A DNA stretch of 64,000 nucleotides, taken from Octopus sinensis. Lineage: Eukaryota. The translations under genes were made by a program, and so were the position numbers. Positions 23,752 through 29,962 of the stretch are shown piece after piece. The DNA lies in NCBI RefSeq assembly GCF_006345805.1, contig NC_043000.1, positions 18,538,001 through 18,602,000 on the forward strand, given 5' to 3'. The notes under the pieces were generated by a model. The model saw nothing but the letters and a program-made list of their open reading frames with translations. It searched no databases and had not been told where the DNA came from. Position 1 is the first letter of the stretch, and the number at the start of each line of letters is the position of its first letter.

Positions 23752-23850
23752 ATGTCTGGTGACCAAGCTTTTGAGCCGGATGAAATGTTTCCCGTTGTTT
23801 CTAACATAGATGAACTTGAAGATCGAATAGTCATAGGAAATATCCCCCAG
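23752..23850 (+). CDS. Probable first coding exon of the TRP channel gene (exon ~23637-23850)
   Basis: Acceptor ttttgttttctag|23637; gcaATG start; MSGDQAFEPDEMF...GNIPQ; donor CAG|GTTAGT in phase 0, matching the phase-0 acceptor at 26605/26606. Confidence 0.6.
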
Positions 23851-24510
23851 GTTAGTAATTCTACTCCTTTATCTATCTATCTATCTATCTATCTATCTAT
23901 CTATCTATCTATCTATCTATCTATCTATCTATCTATCTATCTATCTATCTATCTATTTATCTATCTATCTATCTATCTTTATTTATTTTTGTCTTTCCCA
24001 TTATTGTATTAAGAACATTATTCACGTCTGGGCCTGACATGAATAGCAATAAATTATTATTTGGTTTTTTAATTTGTTAAGATGGTAAGGCGGCGACTTG
24101 GCAGAATTCTTACCGCGTCGGAAAATATGCTTAACGGCATTTCTTCAGACTTTACGTTCTAAGATCAAATGTTGCCGGGATCGACTTTGCCTTTCATTTT
24201 CGGGGTTGAAAAAATAAGTATTCAAGGAGTTATTATTAACAACCGGTGGAGGGTCATATTGAAACGAAAACTTAGAGCAGTATCGATTAGATTTAGTAAA
24301 GAGATTGGGATCGATGTAATCAACTTAACGCCTTACTCCGAAATTTCTGGTCTTGTGTCACAATTTGAAACTAATTTAGCAGGATGTTATTCGAAGGAGG
24401 CTTGGCTGGAAATGGGCGATCAACTGCATGGAGGCTCTTTCAATAACTCTAATACAAAAAACAGTACACTACACAAAATGTCATGAACTACAAGGGATTA
24501 GCCTGGGGCT

Positions 24511-24767
24511 ACACCACCACCGCCACCGCCACCACCACCACCACCACCACCGCCACCACTACCGCCACCACCGCCACCACCGCCACCGCCACCACTACCG
24601 CCGCCACCACCACCACCACCGCCACCACCACCGCCGCCGCCACCACAACCACCACCACAACCACCACCGCCACCACCACAACCACCACCACAACCACCAC
24701 CGCCACCACCACCACCACAACCACCACAACCAAAACCGCCACCACCACCGCCGCCGCCACCACCACC
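24511..24767. repeat. (ACC/GCC/ACA)n trinucleotide low-complexity tract (intronic)
   Basis: Pure triplet repeat; it explains the poly-Thr, poly-His and poly-Val ORFs. Confidence 0.9.
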
Positions 24768-26605: not shown

Positions 26606-29600
26606 AGAGTCCCAGAAGCTTATAACTTTGAACAATTCAAAGGCATTGACTGGTCAGAACAATCAGCTACGTCTTCCGATGAATTGCGAAGGATAGTAAG
26701 AGATGACTCAGTAGAACTTCTTAAAGAATACCTGGAAAATAAGTCAGATTCTCTGAAACAACGTGCCTTGCAATATGCTATGGAAGATAACCAAATCGAA
26801 ACAATCAAGTGTCTAATTGAATATTTAGATGAATATATCTTGCTTAAGAAATATGACCTAGTTAGAAATGAAGGAATTATTGAGAAAAGTTTATTACAAT
26901 ATATAACTGAATCAAACGATAAAGATATGGCAAAATGTTTCTTAGACAAATTCCCAAAGGAAAAACGTCCGGAAATCATTCTACAAGAAATTCTTATGAA
27001 TATTCCAGGGAAATCATTCCGAACAGCAACATGTTACCATTTAGCTGCTTATTTAGGCTTTAGTGAATTAACAAATTTCTATAAATCGCAGGGAATTACC
27101 GTGGATAGTAAAACTTTGATGGAAGAAACTGCGTTAATGTGGGCGACACGGGGTGATCAAAAGTTACTAATTCAAGAGCTTATAAGAATGGGTGCTTGCC
27201 CATTTTTAAAAAACGTTAATGGGTGTACAGCACTTCGTTGGGCAGTACGTTATGGATACATTGAATGTGTCAACATTCTTTTAGGACATTTTACAAATGA
27301 ACATAAATCAGATTTAATATCATCTCTTAATCTTGCATCAGCTTTCGGCTACAGTCAAATCGTTGAATCGATAATTGCCTCATCTCTGATTGATGTGAAC
27401 ACCCCTGACTGCTACCAGCAATATCCTATTCATTATGCAGCGAATAAAGGTAACGAAGATGTCTTACAACTTTTAATCCAGAATAAGGCAGACCTTAATG
27501 TAACAAATGCAAAAGGCGATACAGCTTTGTTTTTGGCAATACAAAATGATCAGATGCATATAGTTCGGATGCTGATAGAATTTGGTTGTGAAGTCTATCT
27601 CAAGAATATGGAAGGCAAGGATATTTGGTCCTTTGCACTACTTAAGAGAGATAAAGCCTGTTTTCAAGGTCTCATACATATTATTACGGAAAAAATTATT
27701 AATGGAAGCACCGAGTTGGAGATGCTATTTAACACTCGATCACCTGTGTTTGAAATTGCAAAAAATGGAGATTTAAGTGGACTAGAGATTTTAGAAGAAC
27801 GTAAATTAGATATGAAAATAAAAGATGAGGATGGTAATACAATACTGCATATTGCCGCTCAAGGAAAGCATCATGCAATCGTGGACCGTTTTAAGGACCC
27901 AAATTTCCTTAATGAACAAAATAATAATGAGGAAACCGCGCTTCATTTAGCTGTTTCGACTGGAAGTTTTGAAACAATAAATGCGTTTCTTAAATTAGGA
28001 GCAAAAGCTAATATTAAAAATTGCAATGGGGAAACAATTTTGCATATTGCTGCAAAATCTAAAAACACTTCTGCTGAAGTCATGAGGCTTTTAGTTAATT
28101 ACGTGATGAACAGACATTCTTGGGATAATTTAAATGATACTGATAAGGAAGGAAGAAATGCCCTTCATGTGGCTGCACTATATAGCTCACCAGGCGTTAT
28201 TTGGGAATGCCGTATTTTGAACTGTAATACATCTGATATAAATGGTGATACCCCATATCATCTAGCTATTCGTGCAAAGCAACCAGAAATCTTTCAGAAG
28301 ATGCTTGATATTTATGAGTTTAAAATGAACAAAGCAGACCTCAACAAAAGGAATAATGAAGGAGAAACTGTAGTTTTTAAAGCCATTGAAAATAGTTTTT
28401 TATGTTGCTTTGAAAGGTTACTTCAACACAATATTGATTTAACATTAAAGTACAAAGAGAAAGAAAATACTGTCCTCCATCATTTAGTTAAAATTTGCAT
28501 CAAAAACAGTGAATGTCTCGAATTTTTCGACGTACTTCATGATCATTTTACTTCTAAAAATAACTTGAAATTTTCTTCCAAAGATTTCAGAAAATTAATT
28601 TTTGAAGTGAAGAACAAAAAACAGTTATGTGTGTTTAGTTTGGCTTTCATAAAATGTGCTAAAGACATTATAGAAAAACTGATGACACTAAAATATGTAA
28701 CGCAGTTTGATATAGGCGAACGTAAGTATTTTGATGTGACACAAATCCTGTTAAACCATGATATGTATTTCAAAAGCATTAAAAGAAACTCTGATACAAG
28801 TATGCCTTCTAATAGCGCCTTTGAAATATTTCTTAATATGGAAACTAAGCCAGCGCTTGGGGAACTTTTCACTATCTTACCATTAAAACATATTGCAGAG
28901 GTATACGAAAAAATGAATCATGATCTGTGTATCGTGGCAATGGCAGTGCATTTTTCACATATGATCTTATTGACTTATACTGCCAATTGCCTGGTGAAAT
29001 ATAGAATAGATGAAGCAGAGAACATTAACTTAAACCCTATAATTATTTGTAGCTTATGTGAACCAGTTGTAATCCTAATTTTCTGTCTGATATCTTCGTT
29101 CCGTTCTACCTGCAATTATTTAGGATATCAAGGACGTGATGAGGAGCCTGAAGAAGATGATAAAAATCATCATCAAAACAATATGATATGCTCATCGGCA
29201 GACAAAAATTCTTTTCGATATAAATTAAAAAAATTGAGAAAATATGTAAAAAAAAAATTTGCATTAACAACAATAATGTCCATTTATTCAGTACTTTCTA
29301 TCGCATGGATTATTCAGCTATGGACAAATGATCCAGACTACTACTTTTGTTTAGGTGTAGTTTTATGCTATGGTTGGCTTCTTGGCATAACTTTTATACG
29401 AGGTTTTAAACCATTGCATTACTTTTGGCGTGTGCTATCAGAAATGATTGAAAGGGACATTCTCAGGTTTTTTGGCATGTACGCGTGCGTTTTATTAGCT
29501 TTTTCGCTTTTATTTCATATCTGGTTAAATGGTTCCGGTAAAATTAAGGACGACAGCCCTTGGTTAACAATCTTTGCACTGTTTAATCTATTGTTAGGAA

Positions 29601-29962
29601 TGGAAGAAATATTTGAATATAATTTGAAAGATGCCCTGAATGAAGTCAGTTTACTGACTGACCTTTACAAAGTATTATATTGCTTATATTTTATAACAGG
29701 CGTCATTATTTTTATAAATCTTCTGACGGCAATGTTAAATGATACTTATTCAGTTATTAAATCAAGAAACGAACTTAACTGGCAAATAGATTCAATCAAA
29801 CAAGCCATTCGAGTTGAGAAGATTCTTCCTTGCGTAAGATCATTCTTCTATACTAGAAAGATTAAAAGAATGAAATGTCTTGATAATGAGGACGATTCGA
29901 TTAAATATTACGCTATTTTATCATTTAACAAAAACAAAAACAAACAATCAAAAATGAAATAA
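26606..29962 (+). CDS. Transient receptor potential cation channel: TRPV-type TM/pore region with ~16-18 N-terminal ankyrin repeats (main exon)
   Basis: 1118 open codons after the acceptor tttttgcag. Many ankyrin motifs (TALMWA, TALRWA, YPIHYAA, TILHIAA, TALHLAV, NTVLHHLV), six hydrophobic segments, and TRPV-like FIRGF...MIERDILRFF, pore LFNLLLGMEE and S6/TRP box NLLTAMLNDTY...NWQ. Confidence 0.93.
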   Translation, partial: RVPEAYNFEQFKGIDWSEQSATSSDELRRIVRDDSVELLKEYLENKSDSLKQRALQYAMEDNQIETIKCLIEYLDEYILLKKYDLVRNEGIIEKSLLQYITESNDKDMAKCFLDKFPKEKRPEIILQEILMNIPGKSFRTATCYHLAAYLGFSELTNFYKSQGITVDSKTLMEETALMWATRGDQKLLIQELIRMGACPFLKNVNGCTALRWAVRYGYIECVNILLGHFTNEHKSDLISSLNLASAFGYSQIVESIIASSLIDVNTPDCYQQYPIHYAANKGNEDVLQLLIQNKADLNVTNAKGDTALFLAIQNDQMHIVRMLIEFGCEVYLKNMEGKDIWSFALLKRDKACFQGLIHIITEKIINGSTELEMLFNTRSPVFEIAKNGDLSGLEILEERKLDMKIKDEDGNTILHIAAQGKHHAIVDRFKDPNFLNEQNNNEETALHLAVSTGSFETINAFLKLGAKANIKNCNGETILHIAAKSKNTSAEVMRLLVNYVMNRHSWDNLNDTDKEGRNALHVAALYSSPGVIWECRILNCNTSDINGDTPYHLAIRAKQPEIFQKMLDIYEFKMNKADLNKRNNEGETVVFKAIENSFLCCFERLLQHNIDLTLKYKEKENTVLHHLVKICIKNSECLEFFDVLHDHFTSKNNLKFSSKDFRKLIFEVKNKKQLCVFSLAFIKCAKDIIEKLMTLKYVTQFDIGERKYFDVTQILLNHDMYFKSIKRNSDTSMPSNSAFEIFLNMETKPALGELFTILPLKHIAEVYEKMNHDLCIVAMAVHFSHMILLTYTANCLVKYRIDEAENINLNPIIICSLCEPVVILIFCLISSFRSTCNYLGYQGRDEEPEEDDKNHHQNNMICSSADKNSFRYKLKKLRKYVKKKFALTTIMSIYSVLSIAWIIQLWTNDPDYYFCLGVVLCYGWLLGITFIRGFKPLHYFWRVLSEMIERDILRFFGMYACVLLAFSLLFHIWLNGSGKIKDDSPWLTIFALFNLLLGMEEIFEYNLKDALNEVSLLTDLYKVLYCLYFITGVIIFINLLTAMLNDTYSVIKSRNELNWQIDSIKQAIRVEKILPCVRSFFYTRKIKRMKCLDNEDDSIKYYAILSFNKNKNKQSKMK

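Follow-up and report, generated by a model that had tools for sequence, protein, structure and literature searches.

The question raised by this locus was which family of TRP channels it belongs to, as it combines a TRPV-like pore with an ankyrin array of TRPA size. The gene lies on the forward strand at positions 23752 to 29962 of the window, by which the whole analyzed stretch of 64,000 nucleotides (nt) from Octopus sinensis is meant (RefSeq assembly GCF_006345805.1, contig NC_043000.1, positions 18,538,001 to 18,602,000). The TRP families are usually separated by ankyrin count, canonical TRPVs having six ankyrin repeats, and the clade described here breaks that rule. It was concluded that the locus is an intact, spliced octopus gene, in whose product a TRPV-type membrane core stands behind 19 predicted ankyrin repeats, and that this product is likely a tetrameric Ca2+-permeable channel. 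The reading as a whole, comprising the architecture, an origin from the TRPVC/TRPVD side of TRPV and the use of the repeats as a sensor or docking arm, was graded as probable.

The gene consisted of two coding exons with an intact open reading frame of 1151 amino acids (aa), the sole stop codon being terminal. The first exon (99 nt, GT donor) was joined in phase 0 to the second (3357 nt, AG acceptor). The translation was letter-for-letter equal to the database protein P0156, which is O. sinensis LOC115210253 and is named "uncharacterized". The O. bimaculoides orthologue (P0001) was 86% identical and shared the N-terminus. The splicing was compared with contigs of a related organism in two comparisons of four runs each; the RNA nature of the runs was guessed, none being recorded as RNA, and they carried no tissue labels. 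In one comparison the contigs of two of the four runs (X2 and X4) skipped exactly the 2755-nt GT..AG intron, and in the other a contig of one of the four (X1) held both exons side by side. The contigs of run X9 covered the intron, and the exon-exon joint was absent from them; a further run, X10, gave zero cover on the exons of the gene. Upstream of the point where the X2 and X4 contigs begin to match, 94 (X2) and 29 (X4) contig letters remained unmatched, from which at least one further 5' exon was inferred. A small middle exon near 26281-26354 was discarded, since the contigs skip that stretch. A pseudogene was considered unlikely, as the reading frame was intact in the O. sinensis gene, P0001 and P0002. 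The O. vulgaris record P0003 ends at 796 aa, diverging from a GT-like site onwards, and was provisionally read as a gene-model artefact. The features of the gene, with domain boundaries taken from an AlphaFold2 (AF2) model where noted, were as follows:

23637-23751, forward strand: 5' untranslated part of the first coding exon; X2 and X4 contigs begin to match at 23637, just after an AG
23752-23850, forward strand: first coding exon, ATG and 33 codons; N-terminus predicted disordered (AF2) and the same in P0001
23851-26605, forward strand: only intron of the coding region, 2755 nt, GT..AG, phase 0, holding microsatellites and dispersed repeats
26606-29962, forward strand: second coding exon, 1118 codons and TAA, with the entire ankyrin array, channel and tail
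26675-28684, forward strand: 19 predicted ankyrin repeats (aa 57-726), from AF2/DSSP, Pfam and the repeat consensus
28472-28684, forward strand: repeats 18-19, putative counterparts of TRPV ankyrin repeats 5 and 6 (AR5, AR6), from repeat-specific profile scores and the HHalign register
28703-28876, forward strand: predicted TRPV-type linker, beta-hairpin and helix-loop-helix (aa 733-790), from the AF2 model and profile scores
28877-29404, forward strand: predicted pre-S1 and S1-S4 (aa 791-966), S2-S3 loop disordered (AF2)
29405-29752, forward strand: S4-S5 linker, S5, pore helix, filter and S6, from sequence match to TRPV
29417-29419, forward strand: S4-S5 linker residue His971, matching TRPV1 G563 and TRPV3 G573 in position (fingerprint table of PMC9242649)
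29594-29608, forward strand: filter LGMEE
29726-29728, forward strand: Thr1074, at the I679 gate position of S6
29753-29923, forward strand: TRP helix and two C-terminal beta-strands, with no coiled coil after them
29780-29782, forward strand: W1092 of the TRP helix

Pfam profiles recognized Ank_2 (E 2e-60, eight stretches) and Ion_trans (E 1e-6). A DSSP-based count on the AF2 model (65-row alignment, mean confidence score pLDDT 83) gave 19 ankyrin-type helix pairs, the first two or three being degenerate; the repeat number was taken from this count, and our own seeded ankyrin hidden Markov model undercounted. The long array described by eye in the initial annotation was thus real, and its estimate of 16-18 repeats slightly low. 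In the model the array was followed by a beta-hairpin (aa 733-743), a helix-loop-helix, pre-S1 and S1-S6, the TRP helix and two C-terminal strands, so that the predicted layout was that of a Group 1 TRP channel, with N-terminal ankyrins, six transmembrane (TM) helices, a pore loop and a TRP helix. The motifs ENTVLHHLV and NKKQLCVFSLA, which the initial annotation had taken for TRPV-like last repeats, corresponded to repeats 18 and 19 and indeed scored best against TRPV AR5 and AR6 in a repeat-by-repeat profile comparison. Only these two matched specific TRPV repeats, and the other 17 showed no six-repeat period. A triplication of the six-repeat TRPV domain was rejected, the mean similarity at offset 6 (-10.6) being below that at offsets 1 and 4 (-4.6 and -4.7). 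An array borrowed from TRPA in register was likewise unsupported, as the top three registers were near-equal (e.g., 276, 269 and 260).

The membrane part was then compared with solved and profiled channels. The TM region matched 84 PDB sequences, of which the 60 best were all TRPV, with TRPV5/6 first (E 3e-11). A profile of the octopus protein's family over aa 790-1090 scored 193.6 against a profile of vertebrate TRPVs only and 106.4 against TRPA, and aa 640-800 scored 114.8 in register against vertebrate TRPV and 60.2, out of register, against TRPA. Superposition of the linker-to-tail model by VIA-align gave the highest Z for TRPV6 (21.8, root-mean-square deviation (rmsd) 3.8, 329 aligned), followed by TRPV2 (20.2), Nan-Iav (20.0) and TRPV1 (19.4), compared with 17.7 for the best TRPA1 (rmsd 4.7, 333 aligned) and 13.9 for NOMPC. 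Foldseek returned TRPV in all 44 rows listed for the same model, and the TRPV-type AR5-AR6 pair, linker beta-hairpin and C-terminal strands were recognized in the full-length predicted model and its sequence profiles. Sequence and model comparisons hence support a membrane part that is TRPV-like and not TRPA.

These comparisons also bear on the possibility of a tethered mechanosensor of the NOMPC kind, whose ankyrin arm would serve as its gating spring. The array is long and regular, and its best PDB sequence match was NOMPC (E 2e-51), with ankyrin-1/2 and designed ankyrin proteins (DARPins) next. That match appears to be generic ankyrin similarity, however: TRPN/NOMPC has 28-29 repeats (PMC12980990) against 19 here, its core is of TRPC type and forms a separate clade, the Z of the octopus core against it was the low value given above, and the genome has its own locus (L004/L050), which we take to be TRPN-like from its motifs and tree position. 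A His at the position of TRPV1 Y441 is shared with TRPN (PMC9242649). Such a tether was judged quite improbable.

At two positions of the TRP fingerprint, TRPVs carry A680 and W697 where TRPA1 carries G and R (PMC9242649), and the octopus protein had both TRPV states (A1075 and W1092). The same was true of most other clade rows, with A at 680 in 60 and W at 697 in 54 of the 62, compared with G at 680 in all 14 TRPA rows and W at 697 in none of them. The S4-S5, pore and S6 motifs that the initial annotation had likened to TRPV were present as RGF...ERDILRF, LGMEE and NLLTAML..TY, S6 reading INLLTAML, together with the TRP-box W1092. The TRPVL fingerprint (N441, W666, F678, A697) was not matched, the octopus residues being H, Y, L and W; TRPVL is alike in its TRPV-related status, and abalone TRPVL differs further in having five repeats and 25 exons. 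The clade also had a signature of its own, with His at TRPV1 Y441 in all 62 other rows and Tyr at W426 in 52 of them. The Gly of G563, which pairs with W697 and whose substitution is a gain of function in TRPV1, TRPV3 and TRPC4/5 (PMC9242649), was retained in none of the 62 rows, being replaced by His, Asn or Arg (51, 8 and 3 rows), and it was likewise absent from 11 of 12 short-array invertebrate rows. Thr at the I679 gate occurred in all three octopods and in none of the 62 others.

Vertebrate TRPV5/6 and TRPV1-4 (TRPVD and TRPVC) were the best sequence and fold matches, alike in AR5-AR6, the linker beta-hairpin, pre-S1, RGF...D..RF, the S6 motif N-L-x-A, the TRP-box W and the C-terminal strands. 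The octopus gene differs from them in its 19 repeats versus about six, in His at G563, His at Y441 and Tyr at W426, in the filter GMEE and in the single coding intron, and the non-octopod members differ in a heptad-rich tail.

The TM-only tree that the initial annotation had proposed as a check was built with TRPV, TRPA and TRPN rows. The main tree comprised 40 rows and 304 columns, and was computed under LG+C20 with posterior mean site frequencies (PMSF) and a TRPC/TRPN outgroup. The 40-row tree and a 36-row tree were hand-chosen subsets of 84 rows, the TRPA row P0282 being dropped for lack of S6; painless, pyrexia, water witch and named TRPVL sequences were not part of the trees. The TRPVA, TRPVB, TRPC and TRPN rows were partial exon sets from the octopus genome, labeled by motifs and tree position. 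In the 40-row tree TRPA was monophyletic (100/100) to the exclusion of the octopus protein, which joined five other molluscs at 100/98. With eight TRPA rows, the approximately unbiased (AU) test rejected the grouping of the octopod pair with alpha/beta TRPA (p 4.65e-6) and that of a 13-row clade with alpha/beta TRPA (p 0.0013). When the tree was rooted on TRPA, the clade (100/99) was nested among short-array invertebrate TRPV-like rows (99/96, 96/93), and FastTree on all 84 rows nested it in the same place. Based on these data, it is very likely that the clade is TRPV-related and not TRPA, and we lean towards its being nested inside TRPV. The "divergent TRPV or TRPV-like" label of the initial annotation therefore stood as far as a TRPV-like, non-TRPA core is concerned, and a place inside TRPV is favored without proof.

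Several results weigh against the reading as a TRPV descendant. Some point to a divergent TRPA, that is, gammaTRPA as published, perhaps as kin of painless. The top Foldseek match of the full-length model was fly TRPA1, and full-length BLAST and HHalign also favored TRPA, the top seven BLAST rows being TRPA and all on the ankyrin part. The ESM Atlas feature match of aa 640-1151 was highest for a painless-like cluster (0.95), with a molluscan TRPV3-like cluster at 0.94. The long array itself and the tail of the relatives agree with TRPA as well: a C-terminal coiled coil is a TRPA feature, and a heptad-rich TRPA-like tail was found in 20 of 21 non-octopod members, as in 12 of 14 TRPAs, compared with one of 12 short-array rows and none of five vertebrate TRPVs (score of at least 18, a crude score of our own without a shuffle control). 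In none of the three octopod rows was the threshold reached, the octopod tail being too short for a coiled coil in all three. A full-length tree with octopus members only, from which three short rows were dropped, joined them to TRPA at a support below 80, and a published RAxML and MrBayes analysis placed gammaTRPA within TRPA with clade support of 100/1.00 (PMC13402157). However, whole-protein comparisons favor TRPA because of the repeats, and the order flips once these are removed. A repeats-driven placement in TRPA is thus suggested as an artefact of full-length trees, although it was not reproduced. The published alignment was made with Clustal Omega on protein sequences, with no TM restriction in the accessible methods, and the relatives from Pecten and Magallana are missing from its table. 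Moreover, the AU rejections, the TRPV states at A680 and W697, the RGF...D..RF linker, the TRPV-specific AR5, AR6 and linker, the structure ranking and the absence of a single array register with TRPA all oppose a TRPA origin. It is largely refuted for alpha/beta TRPA, and overall it was considered very improbable. TRPA1 (alpha and beta) resembles the octopus protein in length, in the 13-18 repeats of abalone TRPAs and in the heptad tail of the relatives, and differs in the S6 motif GLAVxDI, in a TRP-like helix without W, in having 24-32 exons and in forming a separate clade.

Some of the remaining contrary results point to a separate, old Group 1 TRP family which arose near the TRPA/TRPV split, kept the long array and coiled coil, and would work as a channel of TRPA1 shape whose gate resembles that of TRPV. 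The best tree rooted on TRPC/TRPN split the clade from all of TRPV and TRPA (94/88, 92/80), so that it was sister to both. The tests gave no rejection of a broadly defined, monophyletic TRPV (p 0.116) or of a clade of C/D type (p 0.299), and the short-array invertebrate rows were mostly unnamed and gathered as matches to the octopus protein, hence biased toward it. Of the 12 fingerprint residues, 7-12 of which are retained by TRP subfamilies (PMC9242649, Table 1), seven were kept (F999, F1026, Y1061, N1071, L1073, A1075 and W1092), the changes being W426 to Y, F434 to C or L, Y441 to H, G563 to H and I679 to T. The clade's own signature, the heptad tail shared with TRPA and an array that is no tandem copy of the TRPV six also agree with such a family. 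On the other side, the very long outgroup branch (2.3) makes the TRPC/TRPN-based root unsafe, the same tree leaves TRPA unresolved among the TRPVs, and keeping TRPV whole costs only 9.3 log-likelihood units. Every named member is lophotrochozoan, a narrow range for a family of such age, and this origin was judged distinctly unlikely. A broader form of the idea, which we regard as possible but doubtful, is that gammaTRPA is the tip of an unrecognized mollusc and annelid Group 1 TRP family apart from TRPA, TRPV and TRPVL. This form jointly includes an arm constant at 19 repeats, a TRPV-type gate reorganized about a His at the site where other TRPs require Gly, and a coiled-coil tail dropped by octopods during fast pore evolution.

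Returning to descent from TRPV, the clade spans molluscs and annelids and would most likely derive from the TRPVC/TRPVD side. Weak word-index searches gave three and six matches, and the family was assembled from a phmmer scan with the membrane part, which found 331 proteins, at least 49 of them of 1000 aa or more among the 150 matches listed. The named long-array members among 30 looked up came from Solemya, Magallana, Pecten, Pinctada, Lymnaea, Batillaria, the chiton Liolophura and the annelid Paralvinella. Of 35 full-length rows picked by hand, 27 occupied all 19 repeat positions, five occupied 18 and three occupied 17, as counted by alignment occupancy and not by separately predicted folds. 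Bivalves, gastropods, chiton and annelid thus had the same 17-19-repeat design, usually with the heptad tail and S4-S5 His or Asn. The long array predates cephalopods, because it is shared in register with these groups, and the expanded sensor domain specific to the lineage, as the initial annotation had supposed, was not borne out; an octopus-specific expansion was ruled out by the long arrays of the other molluscs and the annelid. What was octopod-specific in the sample was the lost C-terminal coiled coil, the S6-gate Thr and a fast-evolving membrane domain. Between P0156 and P0001 the membrane part was 78-80% and the array 90-91% identical, and between P0156 and P0002 the values were 64-65% and 82-86%, compared with 97-98% for beta-TRPA between two Octopus species. 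The distal 13 repeats were the best-conserved part among octopods.

The gene is already catalogued: it is the row LOC115210253/LG4 of Table S1 of Molina-Carrillo et al. 2026 (PMC13402157), where the O. bimaculoides orthologue is likewise filed as gammaTRPA. That study describes gammaTRPA as cephalopod-only in its sample and as single-copy in most of its 13 cephalopods, and lists the O. sinensis protein at 892 aa; the gene stood outside its expression panel and was unassayed. Its gammaTRPV contains no cephalopod. The same gene is meant, but in the present analysis a TRPA placement was rejected for the TM core, and clade members were found across Mollusca and in an annelid. The gammaTRPA assignment is likely wrong, a misplacement due to the repeats, and the clade is likely wider than reported; the gammaTRPAs of squid, cuttlefish and Nautilus were assumed to be members. 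The mislabeling foreseen in the initial annotation was encountered in the databases too, the O. vulgaris copy being named "TRPA1-like" and the oyster (Magallana) relative "Ankyrin-1", with many members unnamed. Another member is possibly the oyster "TRPA1.1" (LOC105321875, 1265 aa), which fails to cluster with TRPA and carries the NCBI description "TRPA1/TRPV3" (PMC8004665, Table S1).

The probable nearest named group is lophotrochozoan TRPVC/TRPVD with gammaTRPV, the former defined by Morini 2022 (PMC9664204), among whose accessible sequences the Pecten member is not found. The short-array rows, which were the neighbors in the TM tree, are putative counterparts of the published TRPVC/TRPVD sequences. 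The latter differ in having 4-6 repeats and 700-900 aa, and TRPVs in general have 2-6 repeats (PMC8539334). The abalone ones are intron-poor, and the single coding intron of the octopus gene resembles abalone TRPV-like 25-29 and 40 (1-3 exons) and not abalone TRPA (24-32 exons; PMC12980990). No long-array TRPV is included among the 49 abalone TRPs in the accessible part of that article. The octopus TRPVA/TRPVB (OvTRPV2/OvTRPV1; bioRxiv 2026.03.27.714695) are of the same genus and have a TRPV core, but differ in their about 15 exons, in forming a nicotinamide-gated heteromer and in their separate tree branch; only two O. vulgaris TRPVs are given there. A published account of a long-ankyrin TRPV-type clade was not found by searches with TRP terms and locus identifiers, most subscription journals lying outside the search. 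Counting against the functional part of our reading, the accessible literature gave no tissue, current or ligand data for the gene.

We proposed that four subunits would form one pore, and that repeats 18-19, the linker and the C-terminal strands would build a TRPV-type cytoplasmic skirt coupling to the TRP helix. Lacking the TRPV5/6 pattern, the GM(E/G)E filter would pass Na+ and Ca2+ with modest selectivity; as it is nearer to TRPV3 GLGD than to TRPV5/6, a non-selective, Ca2+-permeable current would be expected. The long repeat arm may serve as a sensor or docking surface, its distal 13 repeats receiving a thermal, chemical or protein signal that would be relayed via the linker to the TRP helix. 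In TRPA1, ankyrin repeats have been tied to thermal sensitivity (PMC11526382). His971 and the octopod Thr1074 may alter the coupling, possibly towards easier opening, which is predicted because in TRPV1, TRPV3 and TRPC4/5 a single change of the S4-S5 Gly leads to gain of function. The same lost Gly and polar gate residue are also compatible with basal opening, and hence with the same descent and another job, namely epithelial or housekeeping Ca2+ entry through a constitutively open, TRPV5/6-like channel. TRPV5/6 are the nearest solved sequence and structure, and abalone TRPV-like genes are high in gill and hepatopancreas (PMC12980990). However, the filter reads G-M-E/G, and the conservation of the 19-repeat arm (82-91% among octopods, above the pore region) points to an exacting role in binding or sensing. 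Ca2+ entry was considered unlikely, and for a sensory use of the channel the chances appeared about even.

If the channel descends from TRPV, cephalopods would have a third TRPV-related channel, two 2026 papers giving only two octopus TRPV types in their accessible parts, and long arrays with coiled coils would either have had two origins or have been lost in TRPVs. If the clade were a separate family, it would be a natural test of whether a TRPV gate can work with a long ankyrin arm, and a new candidate for the sensing of temperature, touch or noxious stimuli in the octopus. Loss of the gain-of-function Gly throughout the clade is a natural experiment on TRP gating. The gene is also a candidate in cephalopod nociception and thermal biology.

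Additionally, the genome scan for TRPA gave no loci with the initial pattern and three with a shorter one. Long-array, TRPA- and TRPN-like genes were observed on contigs C9082, C11702, C8692 (L042-L045), C9075 (L012) and C8695 (L039), where the coverage by repeats of the window was 0 in all six stretches, compared with 0.16-0.46 in five of five stretches of large contigs. Microsatellites were nearly absent from these contigs, and the gaps between the exons of the TRPA gene on C8692 were very short. The contigs probably come from a co-assembled organism, at a guess a dicyemid kidney parasite. The long-array clade member was present in two near-identical copies at L042:4781-7876 and L044:5191-8494, 31-39% identical to P0041, the L042 copy having an additional frame break caused by assembly error or decay.

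Elsewhere in the window, the following were recorded:

45091-45738 and 57587-58078, reverse strand: Zn-C2H2_12 domain (E 1.6e-5) and coiled-coil exon, probably exons of a neighboring autophagy-receptor gene of the TAX1BP1/CALCOCO2 type
35400-36599, 56792-57490 and 60404-61015: fragments resembling, by eye, the reverse transcriptase of a long interspersed element (LINE) or its C-terminal part

Outside the window, a TRPC-like gene on contig C13 (20383430-20385376) contained three tandem S6-coding exons, suggesting mutually exclusive pore exons.

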